DNA of 34,663 nt from Candidatus Heimdallarchaeota archaeon (GTDB lineage Archaea; Asgardarchaeota; Wukongarchaeia; Wukongarchaeales; JBHIFL01). Position 1 is the stretch's first letter, and every line of letters begins with the position of its first letter. The notes under the pieces were generated by a model. The model was not told the origin of the DNA and searched no databases. It saw only the letters and a program-made list of their open reading frames with translations. The stretch is taken from positions 1-34,663 of the forward strand of contig JBHIFL010000048.1 in NCBI GenBank assembly GCA_046761065.1. Reading direction: 5' to 3'. Positions 20,352 to 32,787 of the stretch are shown one piece after another. The translations under genes and the position numbers were made by a program.

Positions 20352-20837
20352 TCAAGCGGTCTTCTTTTTGGAAGATTTAACAAACTTGGAAAAAGCCTCC
20401 GCGAGAGATTCTCTTCGCTCAGGTCGTTTCTCAAGCTTCGGCTCAGAAAGTCTTAAAAGCCGTATTAACCGGTTCTCATATCCCTCAAATATGCTATCGT
20501 CCCCTATTCGGCTTTCAAGAAATGCTTGCCAGACGGGTTCTTCATAATAGTTAAAGAAATCATCAATAATTTGTTCTAGGTAGGTTTTCAAAGTTTCCGG
20601 CGCCTCCTGCTTGTCTCCAGCTAGAACAAAAAGTAAGGGAGGATGCATCGTGTAAACAAATCGATATTCTTCCGTTTCTGTGAGTTCTAAAGACTTCTGC
20701 CCGATTTCTTTACTAAAAGTGAAGATAGCAGACATGAAGCTTGAGAGCATTATGGGATCTAATTTCACTTCTTCCCCAAATGACTCATGGAAAAGGCATA
20801 TTCCGCCCCGATCAATAATCCAGAGGCCTTGTATCAT
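20352..20837 (-). CDS. Longin-like domain protein
   Basis: MIQGLWIIDRGGICLFHESF...DPIMLSSFMSAIFTFSKEI...RFVY...LLFVLAGD...LKTYLEQIIDDFFNYY follows the beta-beta-alpha-beta-beta-beta-alpha longin order typical of Asgard longins. Confidence 0.75.
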   Translation of the reverse strand: MIQGLWIIDRGGICLFHESFGEEVKLDPIMLSSFMSAIFTFSKEIGQKSLELTETEEYRFVYTMHPPLLFVLAGDKQEAPETLKTYLEQIIDDFFNYYEEPVWQAFLESRIGDDSIFEGYENRLIRLLRLSEPKLEKRPERRESLAEAFSKFVKSSKKKTA

Positions 20838-21217: not shown

Positions 21218-21257
21218 GCTCCTTATACGCAAAAGTTAGATGTGGAGAATCCTGGTC

Positions 21258-22157
21258 ATGATTCAAGAACGGATCCATTCCGGAATAGCTGGATTGGACA
21301 AATTACTTGAGGGAGGTCTACTTAAGAATACTACAAATACCGTCTTTGGTGGCACTGGAACAGGAAAGACAACCTTTGCGATTCAATTTGCCCTGGCGGG
21401 CTTGTATAGTGGTGATCATGCCCTGTACATAACCTTCGAACAAACACCTGAAAAGATCCTCCGCCAAGCAGAGTCGCTTGGCCTATATGAATTACGCACT
21501 TACTATGAAGACGAGAAAATAATATTCCATCATGCAACAGGTGAAGAAGTGGTCGAATTCTTGACCACCTCGCTTCCAGGAACCGTTGACGAGCTGAAAG
21601 ATGTCATTTCTATTCACAGTCGTGTGGTCTTGGATCCACTCACGCCATTGATCTGGGAGTTGGGTGAGAAAAAGACCCAACGAACTGTTCTTACTAATGC
21701 CTTTGCTACGCTTCAAGAACTTGGGACCATCCTAACAGTTGTAGAAGAGACCAAAGGATTCGAAGCTGGCGCTGCCATGGTGGAAACGGAAACTCCTCTC
21801 TTATTATCGGACTCTATATTTCATTTACAATTTCTTGGCCTTGGGGGATTATTCAACCGTACATTGCGGATCTTGAAGTGCCGGGGCACACAGCATGGGG
21901 AGGATGTTTACCCTTTTACCTTTACGAAAGGAAATGGAATAACACTATTCCTTCCTGAAGTGGAAATGCTACCTATATCGGAGAAGGCACCTCCTCAGTT
22001 CTCAAAGATTTTCGATGAATATCTTCATATGGTCCGGAAAAAACCTGCGAGTAGTCTTAAGGACATGATATTGAAACGTATCGAAATCATGAAAGGGCAA
22101 TGGACCTACAAAGAATCCCCGGAACTGATTCTTGAAGAGTTAATCAAACAACTTTGA
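21258..22157 (+). CDS. Single-domain KaiC/RAD55-like RecA-superfamily ATPase with a helical C-terminal extension
   Basis: SGIAGLDKLLEGG, Walker A GGTGTGKT, YITFEQ, Walker B VVLDP, RTLRILKCRGTQH arginine finger. Start at 21240 or 21258. Confidence 0.9.
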   Translation: MIQERIHSGIAGLDKLLEGGLLKNTTNTVFGGTGTGKTTFAIQFALAGLYSGDHALYITFEQTPEKILRQAESLGLYELRTYYEDEKIIFHHATGEEVVEFLTTSLPGTVDELKDVISIHSRVVLDPLTPLIWELGEKKTQRTVLTNAFATLQELGTILTVVEETKGFEAGAAMVETETPLLLSDSIFHLQFLGLGGLFNRTLRILKCRGTQHGEDVYPFTFTKGNGITLFLPEVEMLPISEKAPPQFSKIFDEYLHMVRKKPASSLKDMILKRIEIMKGQWTYKESPELILEELIKQL

Positions 22158-22194
22158 ATGTTGAAAACCTGAATCTTCTTAGGGGTTAGAACCG

Positions 22195-22560
22195 TTGTCT
22201 AGGACCACGATTATAAGAAGTATGGACGATTTATACAGCCTCGAGGATGTCATTACTGTTCTGTTGGTTAGAACAGACGGGGTGGTCCTTCAATCAAACA
22301 TCCCCAGTGTGTACCCAGATCCCGAACTTATCAAATCACTGGAATGGGTGGTGTCGGCGGTTCCCTCTGTTGTCATGGAAATGCAAAAGAAAAATCTGCG
22401 GAAAGTTATCTATGACCTCGAAAGTTCCATGATTGTTTTCTATAGCTGCAGTCCACAGATTTTATTGATAGCGCTTCTTGAGCCCACGGCCAACCTTGGC
22501 CTTTTGCTAATCGAACTGAGTCGAACCGCAAGGGTAATTGGTGAGGCGCTTGAATACTAA
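22195..22560 (+). CDS. Roadblock/LC7 domain protein
   Basis: VITVLLVRTDGVVLQS and LLIALLEPTANLGLLLIELSRTA. 121 aa. Confidence 0.85.
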   Translation: MSRTTIIRSMDDLYSLEDVITVLLVRTDGVVLQSNIPSVYPDPELIKSLEWVVSAVPSVVMEMQKKNLRKVIYDLESSMIVFYSCSPQILLIALLEPTANLGLLLIELSRTARVIGEALEY

Positions 22561-22594
22561 TATGCGATCACCTAGGTAGTGAGACCAGGACAGG

Positions 22595-23920
22595 ATGAAT
22601 TTGGTAGAAGCCTCAGTAGCGGTACATAGTTCCGCCGATGCTGAAATTGCCGCTCGTGAAGCGGCAAAGAACGCCATGGGTCGGATTCGCGGGGATGCGG
22701 ATCTGGCACTAGTCCTCATCACCGATCGGTATCCTTCAAAATCCTGTTATAGCCAAGCCCTCCAAGCCATTCAGCAGCAAATTGGGGAGCAAACCCCAAT
22801 AGTTGGATGCATTACTCCGGTGGTTTTTGCTTCACGAGAGATTCCCACCATCCAAGGGGTTGCACTTATGCTCCTTCGGAGCACAGACATTAAGTTTGTG
22901 CCACTTGCATTCCAAAATGCCAGAGTGAAAGCGAGAGACATTGCAAAGCAAATGGTTAAGAGATACTTACCCTTTATTGAGTCATCAGCTGCTTATTCTG
23001 TTCTGATGTGCGCATCGGGTCCGGTATTACCCAAGGACATTTATCGCTCCCTAGAGGTCACTAACAGTTGGTTTGCTCAGAGGTTGACGCCTATCTTTTC
23101 ACGAATTTTTGGATATATCTCCCGACGCTTAATGAAGAAGGGAATGGGCTCACCTACCAGTTACATTGATACCTTAGTCCAAGTATTGGCAAACAAAGGA
23201 ATAACCAACGTAGTCGGGGGAAATTCCATCAACCATAAAGCCCTTTTTGCCTATGAATTCTTCAACACGGATGTCTTGTCCAATTCTGTTGTCTCATGCC
23301 TTTTAACTTCAGATAAACTAAAATTTGGCATCGGGTGGTCCTTTGGTGCGACTCCTACGGGAAAAAAGATCACAATAGACAAAACTCTTGGAAGCTTGAT
23401 TCTGAGAGCAAACAAGAAGAGCGGTCAAGAAGCAATCCTCGAACAAACGGGGATCACTAAAACCTATATCGAAGAGGAGCTTGCCAGTGAAAGTTATGCT
23501 CTTCTGTATCATCTTCACGGCGTTAGGGATTCGACCTCTGGCAATTATTTCCCCTACGTGTCAACCATACCACCGAATCTTTCTTCATTTATGTCGTTTA
23601 TACCGGAGAGATCATTGAAACCAGGCAAAGAGTTAGAGTTCTTGATTCAGTCCGGAGAAGATATTCTAACTTCCATTAGGACGTGCTTGATAGAAGCAAC
23701 GGCCAACATCCACCGTCCAGAATTTGCAATCATCTTTGAATGTTCAAATCGGGCGTTTGCTCTTGGGGATAAGATTCTTCGGGAAGACAAAATTATCAGA
23801 GAAATCTTAGGCGCAGATGTTCCATACATTGGATTTGGTGGCGGGGGAGAATTTTCCTATAAGCCTGAGGGGTATCACTATGTTTGCTCCACTATTCACG
23901 CCCTTGTTGCAGGAGAATAG
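22595..23920 (+). CDS. FIST N+C domain protein (putative small-ligand sensor)
   Basis: AAREAA..A, PIVGC, GVALMLL, VVGG, FGIGWSFG..PTG, IFECSNR, VPYIGFGGGGEF and TIHALV are FIST_N/FIST_C hallmarks. Confidence 0.85.
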   Translation: MNLVEASVAVHSSADAEIAAREAAKNAMGRIRGDADLALVLITDRYPSKSCYSQALQAIQQQIGEQTPIVGCITPVVFASREIPTIQGVALMLLRSTDIKFVPLAFQNARVKARDIAKQMVKRYLPFIESSAAYSVLMCASGPVLPKDIYRSLEVTNSWFAQRLTPIFSRIFGYISRRLMKKGMGSPTSYIDTLVQVLANKGITNVVGGNSINHKALFAYEFFNTDVLSNSVVSCLLTSDKLKFGIGWSFGATPTGKKITIDKTLGSLILRANKKSGQEAILEQTGITKTYIEEELASESYALLYHLHGVRDSTSGNYFPYVSTIPPNLSSFMSFIPERSLKPGKELEFLIQSGEDILTSIRTCLIEATANIHRPEFAIIFECSNRAFALGDKILREDKIIREILGADVPYIGFGGGGEFSYKPEGYHYVCSTIHALVAGE

Positions 23921-27442: not shown

Positions 27443-29470
27443 CTAATTTCTTCTTTTGCGTCTCCAAGCAATGGTTATTAGTGCGATAGGTACCAAGACA
27501 AGAAAGATCCCAATTACCTCTGAAAAGATCGCGGTCTGCGACTCCGTCGAGTAGCTTCTCATACCAAAAGTGGGCGCTTCTTCCAAGTGTGTGTCGGTAT
27601 CAGTAGTCGTAATTGGGGGAGGAGTGTAAGGGGCCATGGTAGGAGTAGTCGTCAGCGTGATGACCATTTTAGCGCCCTCTGGGCCTTCTCCAAGAACCTC
27701 CTCTTGGGATATTTCCCCTTGAAGTGCAGCTGGATCGATTAAGATTGAGGTATAGGGGGTGACTAGGTCGAAATCAATTGAGAGCTGTATAATTTGCTCG
27801 ACGAGGGCAGGTGTTTCACCTTCTAGAAGGATCTGATCGAGGAGATAGTTGATTTTCTGGATTGCCCACAGTTTCGGGACAAACGGATGCACAAGGCTTG
27901 GGTCTGATATATTGAATTGACCTCTGAAGGTTTCTTGACCTTGGGCGGATTCGGTAGTGACTGTGATTGTCATCATGGGATTGTCCCCGTAGTATTTGCC
28001 AACCACGATGATCTCTGAACCGTTGAATAGGGGAGGGATCTCATGGGGGAAAATTTCTTTGACTGGACCACCGCTAAATTCAATGGAAATGTCTTTTAAG
28101 AGGGGAATCGCAATCGTTTGAAAGAAGTCAGATAGCTGTTCTTCAATGTTTTGCGTGGGATGGATTCGGGTGGTTTCGCCGCGGTTTCCAGTTGAGATCT
28201 GATCTAATAGCTCCATGTTCACGTCCCAACCAAACCCAAATGAGTAGATTTTAACGCCTTTCATTGCATTAGCGCTAGCTATGTTTCTAACGATTGTCGG
28301 TTCGTAAACCACTCCCGCGGTGGGAAGCCCATCAGTCAGGAAGACAAGGATTTTCAGGCGATCCGGATCAGAGGTTGGGAATGTACCCAGTGCGACAAGA
28401 AGTGCACCATTGATGTCAGTACTGCCTCCTGCGCTCAGAGAATCAACAAAAGCCAGCGCATCTGAAATGTTTCGATTTTCTGCTGGTAGCAGGCCATCTG
28501 AGTACGTTCGAATAATACTGTCATAGAAAACAATCGTGAAGCGATCATTCGGATTCAGCTGAGGGAGGATATTGTGTATAGCCTCCTTAGTTTGATCAAT
28601 CTTCTCTCCACTCATCGAGCCGGACTTGTCCATCACAAATACGACGTCTTTTGGGAGGGACGTATCTCCTATCCCTTCGAAGACTGGAGCAAATGCGTAT
28701 AGGAAATATTTAATTCCATTCCTATTAGCGACAAGAAGCGTCCCCTCCTTTGGATAAGCCGCTACATCATAGGTAAGGACAAGATCGGTTTTAGGTATCA
28801 CATTCTCTTGGGCATAATGTAATCTGACATGGAACGCGGAATCCTTAACAACGTTAAACTTGTAGCCCTGAACATGAATATTTGAAATAGCGCTTTGGGA
28901 ATAAATATCTATGTTCATTATGAGGGATTCGACCATTGCATCGAAATTCTTGGTTTCCAAGGGATGTAAATACGTATAAGAATTAAAGCGTTTTCTGAGG
29001 AATTGTTCATAGACTAGTTCGACCTTAATACTGTCATTTGGGGCTAAAGAAACCTCATAAGTGAACATTTTTCGCCCCACATATTCTAAGAGGGCGGCAG
29101 TGCGTCCCGCTTCTACGGCCTCCTGATACTCTTCACGTGCTTGTTCGCGAGGAAGAATCGTTCCATAGTGTTTGACTCCACCGAGGGTTAAGGAAAAATT
29201 CGAGATGAAAGCGTCCTCTGGGATCGCGAACAAATATGTACCCTGAACCGGATAGTCATAAGGGTTCAAAAACTCCTGGGAGACATTTGTTTTAACATAG
29301 CCATTCTCGATGAGAACATTGACCCGTTGAGTGCGAACTGGCAGTATCTCGGGTAGATCCCCCGTTCCGGATAATTTGATTACTGGGATACCCTTTACTA
29401 AGACCACTGAATTCATTAGCATCAAAGCCAATAACAAAAACATTTGAGGTTTCATTCTCATGTTATTCAC
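27443..29470 (-). CDS. Secreted, C-terminally anchored VIT + vWA domain protein (ITIH-like)
   Basis: N-terminal signal peptide, VIT region (SQEFLNP...Y.F.IPEDAFISNF), MIDAS DKSGSMS / GSTDI / LTDG, LWA...I..L...VTPYTS, a Thr/Pro linker, then a TM helix followed by RRKRR. Confidence 0.9.
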   Translation of the reverse strand: MNNMRMKPQMFLLLALMLMNSVVLVKGIPVIKLSGTGDLPEILPVRTQRVNVLIENGYVKTNVSQEFLNPYDYPVQGTYLFAIPEDAFISNFSLTLGGVKHYGTILPREQAREEYQEAVEAGRTAALLEYVGRKMFTYEVSLAPNDSIKVELVYEQFLRKRFNSYTYLHPLETKNFDAMVESLIMNIDIYSQSAISNIHVQGYKFNVVKDSAFHVRLHYAQENVIPKTDLVLTYDVAAYPKEGTLLVANRNGIKYFLYAFAPVFEGIGDTSLPKDVVFVMDKSGSMSGEKIDQTKEAIHNILPQLNPNDRFTIVFYDSIIRTYSDGLLPAENRNISDALAFVDSLSAGGSTDINGALLVALGTFPTSDPDRLKILVFLTDGLPTAGVVYEPTIVRNIASANAMKGVKIYSFGFGWDVNMELLDQISTGNRGETTRIHPTQNIEEQLSDFFQTIAIPLLKDISIEFSGGPVKEIFPHEIPPLFNGSEIIVVGKYYGDNPMMTITVTTESAQGQETFRGQFNISDPSLVHPFVPKLWAIQKINYLLDQILLEGETPALVEQIIQLSIDFDLVTPYTSILIDPAALQGEISQEEVLGEGPEGAKMVITLTTTPTMAPYTPPPITTTDTDTHLEEAPTFGMRSYSTESQTAIFSEVIGIFLVLVPIALITIAWRRKRRN

Positions 29471-29767
29471 TCACCTCAATTGATACACTTTGTTGTCACT
29501 ATTAACGAAAATAAAATAATTAAATGTGCTTGTGTAATTTTAAACAGTAGAACATACTTATACAAGAAACCTTCCTCCAAATAGCTACTTCTAGGCATGT
29601 ATACGCTTTAAAGATAAATCATGTAAATAAATTAAATAAAGAACACTAGACTAGTTGAAGGCGGAGTTTCCAACGAATTAGAATGTACAGAAACTCTCCA
29701 ACTAAAACGCGCAAATCATGCTTATTAGGAGAAAAAAAGTGCGAAAAACTTCGTGGGGCGTTATGTC

Positions 29768-31804
29768 ATGAACCGAAAAGTTGTTCTGACATGTCTATTG
29801 ATCGTTTTGATCCCATTAAGTTTTACTGTTGGAGCGAGTCAGCAGGTTTACGCAACAACTCGAGTTTCACTTAATTTTTTAAACCCTGCTGGTAATAGAT
29901 TCGAAAAGAACCAACCTGACACAATTCATAGCTCTCAAAATGCTCTATGGAATGATCAAGTATATTTTGAATGGTCAAATGGGAGTATTGTGAGTTGGAA
30001 AGTTGATGATAACGGGAATAAGGATCCAACAGATGATGTAGATCTCATTGTAGGCAACCCGATGGGGAATTGCATTGATTTGGGGTGGTCAGATCCTGAG
30101 CATACTTCGGACTATAATTTCTACACCACAGGAACAGACACGGATCGAGGCCATCACTCTGCCGCAACGAATGTTGTTTCACAGATCAAAACTAATGAAA
30201 CCATGGGTTCTGTGCTGATCACTGGGGAATTGGGACCCTTTACACGCTTTCAAATAAGATACACGCTTTATATAGGAGATCCTGCAATATATGCGCAAGT
30301 GGCGATCACTTGGACTCAGCCTACTATTATAGGGTTCGTTGGTTATGGCCTGTATACATCTTACCTATCTATTAGAGACATCCCTGACTTCTTTATCCTT
30401 GGAAACGAGACCGAATATCGAATTGATTCCCTACCATTTGTTTCAGGCTGGTATTTAGGAATTAATCAGGAGGCTCAATTTGCTGCGTTTCGAAATTCTA
30501 ATACTGGGAGAATAATTGGGATGGTTGTTCAAGCTGAAAATGACCCTGAGCACGTGTTCGAAGTTTCAGGGGAGTCAAGCCATCCTTGGGGGCGTGGGTT
30601 ATCTTGGTTTTTCAAGTACAGGGGGAACTTCTCAAGCCTGCAACCTTCATATGCGGCCGAATTTCAGATTTATTCAGATAATACAAATAACTATCAGGCG
30701 TTTTTAGCTAGAACAACGAAATTTCCTGCCAAAATTCCCCTTTCCATCTCCTTTATTTCCCCTTTCGAAGGCGAATCAATCCAGAGGACGGTTCGAATTC
30801 AAGTCAAAGTAAACAGCAATGTTGTTGTTTCAAGAGTCGAGCTATTCATTGAGGATGTCCTAAGCGGATGGAAAGATATCACTTCCAACTATAATCCCTC
30901 GACAAAGTATTACTATTACGAATGGGATACTTCACGTGTACCCAATAACAAATACACTTTAATAGCAAGAGTCACCGATATAGCAGGGAATCATGGAGTT
31001 AAAATGCTTCGTTTGTCCATTAACAATCTAAAATTACCTTTTGGGGTCCAAGGAGCATTAGTACTGAGTGGTTTGATTGCAACAATATTCTTTGTGTATC
31101 AGAAGCGACGAGAGAGTCAACAACAACGAAAATTAATGATCCAAGCAGTGGCGCAGAGGGAGTTAGAGTTCGACAGAACGGGACGACTTAACGAATTGAT
31201 AAATTTGGCAAAAGATGACATTCTCATCTTTCAGGATTTGGCCGAAAAGTATGCGGTTTCTCCGATTTTTATTCAAAGAACGGTCGAGAGCCTCGTTTCA
31301 AAAGGAGTCCTCTGGGGAATCACAACAGAAGATGTCTTTATTGGTGTTAAATTTGCCATTTCAACACTTAAACGCCTTTCTAAAGTCTATGAACGAATAA
31401 CCTGGCAATCTCTGATGGAAGAGTTCAAATTACAATCTGAAAAGGATCTGAAAGTGCTCCTGATGCAAGTAAGCCATTCTCAAAATGTTGTTCTAAAAAT
31501 AGATGAAATCGATAAGAGTGTGAGGATTTTGAGTGTTGAGGAAATGAAACCGGTTAAAAAGACACCCAGAACCATGGTATGTCCCAGTTGCAGTATATCC
31601 TTGGATTCACGGGCAGACCATTGTGAAAACTGTGGGGCCGACTTCCCAAAATGCATTGTCTGTAACCTATCAATTTTTGACGATTATACTAAGACTCCTT
31701 GTTGCGGGTCTCCTGCTCATTCCACTCACCTTAAAGAGTGGTTAAAAATAAAGGATGAATGTCCTATCTGCAAAGAAAAACTCAAAGAAGCATGGATTCT
31801 GTGA
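29768..31804 (+). CDS. Single-pass receptor-like protein: ectodomain + Ig + TM + WH/PCI x2 + double Zn-ribbon + RING-like finger
   Basis: Signal peptide; Ig-like region ISP.EG...YEWDT..VPNNKYTL.ARVTDIAGN; TM at about 31040-31099 followed by KRR; PCI-like LSKVYERI....L...F.L.S...L..LL.......LKID; CPSC/CENC; then CIVC-x12-CC-x4-HxxH-x3-W-x6-CPIC. Confidence 0.85.
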   Translation: MNRKVVLTCLLIVLIPLSFTVGASQQVYATTRVSLNFLNPAGNRFEKNQPDTIHSSQNALWNDQVYFEWSNGSIVSWKVDDNGNKDPTDDVDLIVGNPMGNCIDLGWSDPEHTSDYNFYTTGTDTDRGHHSAATNVVSQIKTNETMGSVLITGELGPFTRFQIRYTLYIGDPAIYAQVAITWTQPTIIGFVGYGLYTSYLSIRDIPDFFILGNETEYRIDSLPFVSGWYLGINQEAQFAAFRNSNTGRIIGMVVQAENDPEHVFEVSGESSHPWGRGLSWFFKYRGNFSSLQPSYAAEFQIYSDNTNNYQAFLARTTKFPAKIPLSISFISPFEGESIQRTVRIQVKVNSNVVVSRVELFIEDVLSGWKDITSNYNPSTKYYYYEWDTSRVPNNKYTLIARVTDIAGNHGVKMLRLSINNLKLPFGVQGALVLSGLIATIFFVYQKRRESQQQRKLMIQAVAQRELEFDRTGRLNELINLAKDDILIFQDLAEKYAVSPIFIQRTVESLVSKGVLWGITTEDVFIGVKFAISTLKRLSKVYERITWQSLMEEFKLQSEKDLKVLLMQVSHSQNVVLKIDEIDKSVRILSVEEMKPVKKTPRTMVCPSCSISLDSRADHCENCGADFPKCIVCNLSIFDDYTKTPCCGSPAHSTHLKEWLKIKDECPICKEKLKEAWIL

Positions 31805-31929: not shown

Positions 31930-32787
31930 TTGATAAGAACGTATTTGGAACTCCTAAAACTCAAACAGACCGCATTACTCGTGTGGACCGCGCTTGCTGC
32001 TTATCTTGCTGCTGCGCGCGATGGCCTAAAGATAATCATCTTATTATTCTTAATTGGGGCAATATTTCTTGCTGTAAGTGGAACAACCGTCATAAGCATG
32101 TATTTCGATTCAGAAATTGATGCTGTCATGGATCGCACAAAAGACCGTCCGATCCCGTCTGCTCGAGTTACCCCTCGGAATGCATTAATGTTTGGCATAG
32201 TATTTCTTGGGTTGGGGCTTTTCTTAGCTGTTTTCCTTAATTGGTTAGTTGTAACCATTATCGTAACAGGTGCAATTTTGAATGTAATAGTATACACAAT
32301 CTTCTTAAAACGACGAACTCCATCCTCAATCTTATTTGGCGGGATTGCGGGAGGGATGCCTACCCTAGCAGGATGGACAGCTTATACTAACAAAATTGAA
32401 TTAAGTGGGATCTTACTGGCACTGGTAATTATGGCTTGGATTCCCACCCACGTTCTCACTTTGGCGATGTTCAATGTCCAAGACTATGAGAAAGCCAACA
32501 TACCGATGCTTCCGGTTGTGGTGGGTCAGAAAAGAACCCAGGAAGTGATCCTTTTTTCAAATATAGTTCTAACAGTCCTTGCATTTTCGTTTTTTGTTCT
32601 AAATATTTTTGGGAGGACTTACATAATTCTTTCTTTAGTTCCAACTTTGCTTTTTCTTTTTGGGAGCATTTACATGTTGATCCACCCTTCACAAAAGCTA
32701 TACTGGAGCTTGTTTAAATTATCGGGTCCGTATTTGCTCTTGTTATATATAGCAATGATTATAGACACGATAACTCCAATCTTCTAA
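31930..32787 (+). CDS. cyoE: Protoheme IX farnesyltransferase (heme O synthase, UbiA family)
   Basis: YLELLK, DSEIDAVMDRTKDRPIPS, YTIFLKRRT, GGIAGGMPTLAGW, WIPTH and DYEKANIPMLPVV. Confidence 0.92.
   Translation: MIRTYLELLKLKQTALLVWTALAAYLAAARDGLKIIILLFLIGAIFLAVSGTTVISMYFDSEIDAVMDRTKDRPIPSARVTPRNALMFGIVFLGLGLFLAVFLNWLVVTIIVTGAILNVIVYTIFLKRRTPSSILFGGIAGGMPTLAGWTAYTNKIELSGILLALVIMAWIPTHVLTLAMFNVQDYEKANIPMLPVVVGQKRTQEVILFSNIVLTVLAFSFFVLNIFGRTYIILSLVPTLLFLFGSIYMLIHPSQKLYWSLFKLSGPYLLLLYIAMIIDTITPIF

Follow-up and report, generated by a model that had tools for sequence, protein, structure and literature searches.

The ubiquitin system of Asgard archaea comprises ubiquitin itself, E1, E2 and small RING E3s, alongside a ubiquitin-binding ESCRT-I (PMC9192718; bioRxiv 10.1101/2023.07.25.550441), and a reconstituted Helarchaeia cascade used the RING of the Ub/UEV-Vps23 cluster as its E3 (bioRxiv 10.1101/2023.07.25.550441). 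The small RING E3s (srfp) of archaeal ubiquitin operons are soluble proteins of 80–110 aa, among which the Caldiarchaeum E3 needs I30, W58 and R69 (PMC5654768), and according to a view restated in one review, archaeal ubiquitin systems are built from single-domain proteins (PMC11354881). The PA-TM-RING ligases (RNF43, ZNRF3, RNF13, GRAIL) and the plant TM-RING-H2 protein EL5 consist of a signal peptide, an ectodomain, one TM helix and a cytoplasmic RING. The gene described here shares this layout and comes from an Asgard archaeon in the order of Ca. Wukongarchaeum yapensis (G002), though from a different family. It had originally been read as a candidate receptor-type ubiquitin E3 ligase. Computation showed the order of its domains and their folds, the retention of the E2 face and a cascade encoded in the same genome, and from sequence and models we consider it probable that this predicted type I membrane protein is a membrane-anchored RING E3. 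The features are given below as positions in the window, which is the whole stretch of 34,663 nucleotides that was analyzed.

29768..31804, + strand: whole gene, 678 aa, predicted type I membrane protein (open frame; orthologues at 75–80% identity)
29768..29836, + strand: predicted signal peptide (residues 1–23), with a basic n-region, a hydrophobic stretch at 5–23 and a VGA-S cleavage-like site (hydropathy and inspection only)
29837..30733, + strand: beta-supersandwich ectodomain (24–322), predicted to have the fold of GH38 C-terminal, GH57 C-terminal and YidC periplasmic domains
30734..31033, + strand: Ig-like stalk domain (323–422), matching Pfam Big_7 at 326–398 (34.8 bits, E 2.6e-8, exceeding the cut-off)
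31034..31102, + strand: single TM helix (about 423–445), followed by K446 R447 R448 (hydropathy; five K+R after the helix vs three before)
31184..31342, + strand: winged helix 1 (473–525), from model, alignment and profile scan; missing in some relatives (P0015–P0017)
31343..31543, + strand: winged helix 2 (526–592), PCI-type (Z 10.3 and 9.4, rmsd 1.5 Å to the CSN7 PCI winged helix)
31568..31645, + strand: single C4 zinc ribbon (C605, C608, C619, C622; Pfam Zn_ribbon_3, E 1.7e-4)
31646..31783, + strand: RING finger of the C4H2C2 class, T-P-C-C variant (fold model, profile and alignment)

Full-length orthologues at 75–80% identity were found by sequence search in four other clusters. An in-frame GTG at 29753 offers an alternative start, and orthologue P0002 begins at the same Met as the 29768 call. 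No NCBIfam family matched, and sigma-70 and terminator scans, with models ill-suited to archaea, gave nothing beyond chance. The gene is surrounded by VIT-VWA, lactate racemase, UbiA and AIRS genes, and an independent assembly (L040) keeps the lactate racemase gene, the divergent VIT-VWA gene and the AIRS gene. The UbiA-family prenyltransferase gene (31930–32787, + strand), which is haem O synthase-like and separates the RING gene from the AIRS gene, is missing from that spot in L040 and was therefore either gained here or lost there. The divergent VIT-VWA gene (27443–29470, − strand) encodes a surface protein with a signal peptide, VIT and VWA domains and a TM helix, and its head-to-head pairing with the RING gene is retained in L040. 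It is possible, judging by adjacency alone, that this surface protein is a partner or substrate of the RING protein. Elsewhere in the window a 161-aa gene with a start that looks longin-like by eye (20352–20837, − strand) lies near a KaiC-type ATPase gene and a FIST-domain gene (21240–23920, + strand). The submitter of one close relative's protein gave it the label ‘Ca. Hodarchaeota’.

The signal peptide, the beta-rich ectodomain of about 300 aa, the Ig-like domain and the one TM helix with a positive-inside KRR had all been proposed in this order, and all were recovered, the supersandwich fold of the ectodomain being assigned by model. Residues 24–322 had no Pfam match. In an Atlas model comparison residues 30–322 aligned with supersandwich domains at TM 0.60–0.73 over 211–247 residues, the assignment coming from an Atlas model with a mean pLDDT of 0.63, and the fold hints at glycan or protein binding. 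Neither an ectodomain paralogue in the host genome nor stand-alone or shorter ectodomain relatives were found, the latter search returning a fragment only. Type I topology is predicted, and hydropathy and the positive-inside rule place the RING in the cytoplasm rather than outside the cell. Most type I relatives show the K+R bias toward the RING side more clearly than this protein does, and sequons in the 33 type I relatives occur at 2.27 per 100 aa before the TM helix vs 0.30 after it. In these relatives the sequons thus lie N-terminal of the helix and most basic residues are found toward the RING, a distribution that supports a cytoplasmic RING. The four N-glycosylation sequons reported for this ectodomain do exist, but their number is within chance expectation (5.0 expected from shuffles, P = 0.77).

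The cytoplasmic tail (residues 452–678) was modelled from 80 sequences with a pLDDT of 89 and a pTM of 0.79. Two winged helices had been predicted, the second PCI-like, and both are present; the second has the winged-helix half of a PCI domain, with 65 residues superposed on CSN7 (Z 10.3, rmsd 1.5 Å), but the N-terminal helical repeats that precede it in PCI domains are absent from the tail model, where another winged helix occupies their place. Winged helix 2 is therefore shared in fold with PCI proteins (CSN7, Rpn, eIF3) while their helical repeats are lacking, and we saw no sign of a PCI horseshoe complex for this protein. Relative P0016 scores 21.8 bits against Pfam PCI, where the cut-off is 22. 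As a tandem the winged helices match SelB and UFL1/DDRGK1 (Z 7.9) and, weakly, Odin Vps25; NSE1, which joins a tandem winged helix to a C4HC3 RING, gave a non-significant Foldseek match (E 0.039, prob 0.23, TM 0.18). Winged-helix profiles run against the host genome returned no close partner, with weak matches including C20:20036–20461 and a 694-aa repeat protein on contig C3.

Matches of the winged helices to MarR, OmpR and NiaR domains at Z 6.7–7.5 raise the idea of a one-component transcription regulator anchored in the membrane, with DNA bound by the winged helices and the zinc domains in a supporting role. We find this very improbable, as PCI, TREX-2, SelB and UFL1 all rank higher among the matches, winged helix 1 can be lost, and the RING is retained in many relatives that have neither winged-helix unit. 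In a RING E3 the winged helices would probably serve as a spacer and a protein-binding surface. They are followed by one four-Cys ribbon and not by the double zinc ribbon that had been proposed, which was rejected; the weak Pfam DZR match is made up of the ribbon plus the first RING knuckle. All four ribbon Cys are invariant in 133 relatives, a set that was selected for this pattern.

The expected C-terminal RING-like finger with its E2-contacting Trp and CPIC end was borne out, spanning C629 to C668 with W658 and adopting a RING/U-box fold in the model. Residues 627–678, where the model has a pLDDT of about 90, superpose on the Prp19 U-box at Z 7.3 and rmsd 1.5 Å over 51 residues. From the cross-brace spacing the zinc ligands would be C629, C632, C645, C646, H651, H654, C665 and C668, a C4H2C2 set, and the RING-H2 (C3H2C3) set was ruled out. 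The E2 face consists of I630/V631, W658, P666 and I667, with K669 at the linchpin position. The RING falls below the Pfam zf-RING_2 cut-off of 27.3, scoring 18.1 bits in the whole protein and 23.4 as a fragment, while 131 of the 133 relatives match the same model at E ≤ 0.01. Ligand 3 is shifted, with T-P-C-C where most relatives carry C-P-x-C. Among relatives lacking Cys at ligand 3, 35 of 37 have a Cys two residues on, compared with 1 of 109 that keep it, so the lost ligand is compensated family-wide and T-P-C-C is not decay, although these relatives are kin and the count stands for few events, not 35. When a family profile of the RING alone was compared with the PDB, active RING-H2 E3s came first (EL5 at 2e-9, then RNF24, Ark2C, Arkadia and RNF126), and GATOR2 (2e-4) and WDR19 (2e-3) ranked behind them.

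This RING also resembles those of the archaeal operons. The operon motif C-x2-C-x11-13-C-P-x-C-x4-H-x2-H-x3-W-x6-C-P-x-C is present here in its T-P-C-C variant, and it recurs outside this genome, where 11 of 29 Asgard E2 loci have a small RING gene with the motif within 1.5 kb of E2; these RINGs are identical to this one at 14–25 of 42 residues. The hydrophobic residue between C1 and C2, the helix Trp and the basic linchpin are shared with srfp RINGs, and by spacing I30, W58 and R69 of the Caldiarchaeum protein correspond to I630/V631, W658 and K669. The C. subterraneum srfp, however, is described as C3H2C3 (PMC5654768), whereas this RING is C4H2C2, and in place of a short soluble protein within an operon we have a 678-aa membrane fusion outside one. 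The host genome has a Ub/UEV-Vps23 cluster whose own RING (C33:42243–42578) has the same spacing, and the Helarchaeia E3 presumably carries this RING motif too, which we infer from gene order and not from its sequence.

Searching the PDB with residues 598–678, ribbon and RING together, gave IFT144/WDR19 as the best sequence match (E 7e-5) with the same Cys spacing, and the Leishmania IFT144 chain itself has T-P-C-C. A family profile of the ribbon and RING unit matched IFT-A and GATOR2 tails at 2e-8, and Foldseek with the tail model placed IFT-A first (E 3.6e-6) and GATOR2 next, with a low whole-model TM to IFT-A of 0.35; an Atlas feature search with the tail gave no usable match. The tandem is thus shared, with matching Cys spacing, with IFT-A (IFT144/WDR19, IFT122, IFT121) and GATOR2/SEA (MIOS, WDR24, WDR59), and the unit may plausibly share descent with these tails. 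The original reading had missed this resemblance.

The main rival to an E3 is a non-catalytic scaffold, in which ribbon and RING form a dimerisation module that would join surface proteins to an assembly in the cytoplasm. Winged helices of the PCI type act in oligomerisation, which would fit such a scaffold, as would the standing of IFT144/WDR19 and GATOR2 tails as the best sequence and Foldseek matches of the ribbon and RING unit. The GATOR2 C-terminal domains form scaffold junctions, and the WDR24 RING has no more than a proposed E3 role (PMC12507694). However, the IFT-A and GATOR2 tails end propeller-solenoid scaffolds, where they are mainly junctions, and this protein has no propeller or solenoid ahead of its tail; the whole-model score is also low. 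Moreover, IFT144 has lost the first zinc site ligands and the Trp, both of which are kept here in the alignment, making a catalytic role more likely for this protein. Taken by itself the RING is nearer to active E3s, and the family tracks E2 across genomes, as described below. We therefore regard the scaffold as unlikely.

The genome does not lack a ubiquitin cascade, encoding ubiquitin, E2 and an E1 candidate. The ubiquitin gene (C33:38939–39190) has a GG followed by a short pro-peptide, the E2 (C33:20012–20473) has HPN, a catalytic Cys and the usual loops, and the E1 candidate (C111:5020–6060), assigned on sequence only, has a C-terminal extension and is one of three ThiF-family genes. ESCRT genes for UEV-Vps23, a Vps28-like protein and two Snf7 proteins are present, and STT3 is also encoded. 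The RING gene, on contig C48, is unlinked to any ubiquitin gene, and the Ub/E2 and UEV-Vps23 cluster is on C33. In a set of 121 genomes from the phylum, E2 and this RING class, which includes the operon RING itself, occur together in 87; another 32 have neither, two have the RING only and none has E2 only. The double negatives fall into four families, one of which holds 27 of the 32 genomes and is probably Thorarchaeia, a group described as being without ubiquitin (PMC9192718), and in the five double-negative genomes that were tested ubiquitin is also absent. This co-occurrence ties the RING family, not this single gene, to the ubiquitin system. A second conjugation-like operon was seen on contig C4 of the host genome (C4:11123–14230, − strand), with genes for a 110-aa protein ending in GG, an unknown protein, a JAB-like protein and a ThiF protein. 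The operon and a proteasome alpha-like gene are arranged head to head.

With a host bin that is 91.5% complete and 8.2% contaminated, we considered that the arrangement could be an artefact, either of a chimeric assembly or of a ubiquitin contig that belongs to another organism. The tetranucleotide content of C33, which carries Ub and E2, is somewhat atypical (rank 6 of 87). Against this, four sources give full-length orthologues and the independent assembly shows the same neighbours, C33 carries genes, among them the SAM synthetase-like and MptA-like ones, that occur only once in the bin, and E2 and a RING of this class are also present in both same-order genomes, leaving an artefact scarcely credible.

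Co-folding of the RING with an E2 of the same genome had been suggested as a check. Tail residues 601–676 and the host E2 gave a score of 0.72, whereas the best of three controls reached 0.02; the mark used was reached by 58 of 80 solved pairs and 2 of 110 mismatched pairs. At least 97% of contacts were shared between runs, and the partner had a pLDDT of 86. The RING docks in the canonical interface in these models, with E2 helix 1, P62/F63 and T95–A97 set against I630–L634, W658 and P666/I667, and F63 and P96 of the E2 touching W658 and V631. Since many RING-E2 complexes have been solved, the pass may reflect those known structures, and we take the co-fold as showing a likeness to RING-E2 complexes, which supports binding at most.

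Searching with the tail recovered 644 clusters at 50% identity, and this protein is one of hundreds in the Asgard group with the RING tail, which reaches 29 copies in one genome. The survey for the same tail behind swapped ectodomains was successful: the closest tails sit behind propeller and Ig repeats (P0006, P0013), Kelch repeats (P0016), VWA/PKD (P0024), CBM96 (P0021) and other propellers, and two same-order genomes have the tail with an N-terminal anchor only and no ectodomain. Recurrence behind unrelated ectodomains, or none, marks the tail as a mobile cassette and the ectodomain as swappable. That the protein belongs to so large a family had not been noticed in the original reading. By crude hydropathy, and with some fragments included, the 146 representatives include 33 type I proteins, 44 that are N-anchored, 20 that are polytopic and 48 without a detected TM helix. 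The host genome has four more members (C3:45656–47737, C12:32461–33717, C28:45124–45702 and C1:52651–53388), of which one is a 694-aa winged-helix-repeat protein, one a TM-solenoid-RING protein and two are N-anchored. Four type I relatives (P0113, P0122, P0136, P0151) are surface glycoprotein-like, at 1300–1700 aa with 27–58 ectodomain sequons and the same RING tail. P0006 is flanked by restriction-modification and BREX genes (L041:10001–12490), suggesting that such genes can occupy variable islands. P0017, a close relative of 1296 aa (L004:569–4459), is in a Methanophagales-labelled genome without E2 or another such RING, and its contig is probably mis-binned Asgard, or else a transfer.

Taken together, the RING fold, the modelled E2 docking, the cascade genes and the placement of the RING inside the cell uphold the original prediction of a membrane-anchored RING E3 candidate in an archaeon. 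The RING would bind the ubiquitin-charged E2 (C33:20012–20473) and promote ubiquitin transfer onto membrane-proximal lysines. Targets could be its own tail, which has 24 cytoplasmic lysines, and/or membrane proteins held by the ectodomain, the TM helix or the winged helices. In eukaryotes, ubiquitylated transmembrane proteins recruit ESCRT, and here the tagged protein may be read by UEV-Vps23/ESCRT or passed to the proteasome. Going by its fold only, the ectodomain would be a swappable aiming part, perhaps glycan-binding.

The original prediction went further and suggested that ligand binding outside the cell could drive ubiquitination. This is a special case of the RING E3, in which clustering of the protein by the ligand would turn on ubiquitylation of a specific target. 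The layout is receptor-like, the same tail follows unrelated binding folds (propeller and Ig, Kelch, VWA/PKD, CBM96), and identity among orthologues is as high in the supersandwich (82–84%) as in the RING (78–89%). However, same-order relatives have the tail with a mere N-terminal anchor and no ectodomain, type I proteins make up just 33 of the 146 family representatives, and the single-pass link shows no gating. The coupling is unsupported, and we consider a ligand-gated receptor doubtful, with constitutive tagging at least as likely as switching by outside binding. The comparison with PA-TM-RING ligases is similarly one of layout and not of membership. Although the RINGs of EL5, RNF13 and ZNRF3 are detected by the family profile, PA-TM-RING ligases have a PA domain and a C3H2C3 RING, while this protein has a supersandwich and Ig ectodomain, no PA domain and a C4H2C2 RING. 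Unlike those ligases it also carries about 185 residues, the two winged helices and the zinc ribbon, between the TM helix and the RING. The shared layout is likely a parallel assembly.

Our literature search, with subscription papers mostly outside it, found no description of Asgard ectodomain-TM-RING proteins. A broader picture, in which Asgard archaea have modular surface E3s whose swappable ectodomains relay outside binding to a tail of PCI-type winged helix, zinc ribbon and RING feeding membrane proteins to Ub-ESCRT, and whose ribbon and RING tail is ancestral to the IFT-A and GATOR2 tails, is speculative and in our view rather unlikely. In contrast to the single-domain view of archaeal ubiquitin systems (PMC11354881), the RING family is multidomain and present in up to 29 copies per genome, and the family adds more than this single gene. 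The papers on Asgard ubiquitin and ESCRT (PMC9192718; bioRxiv 10.1101/2023.07.25.550441) name no membrane cargo or membrane-bound ligase. For this missing piece the TM-RING protein and its relatives offer concrete candidates, which the published in vitro cascade could put to the test.
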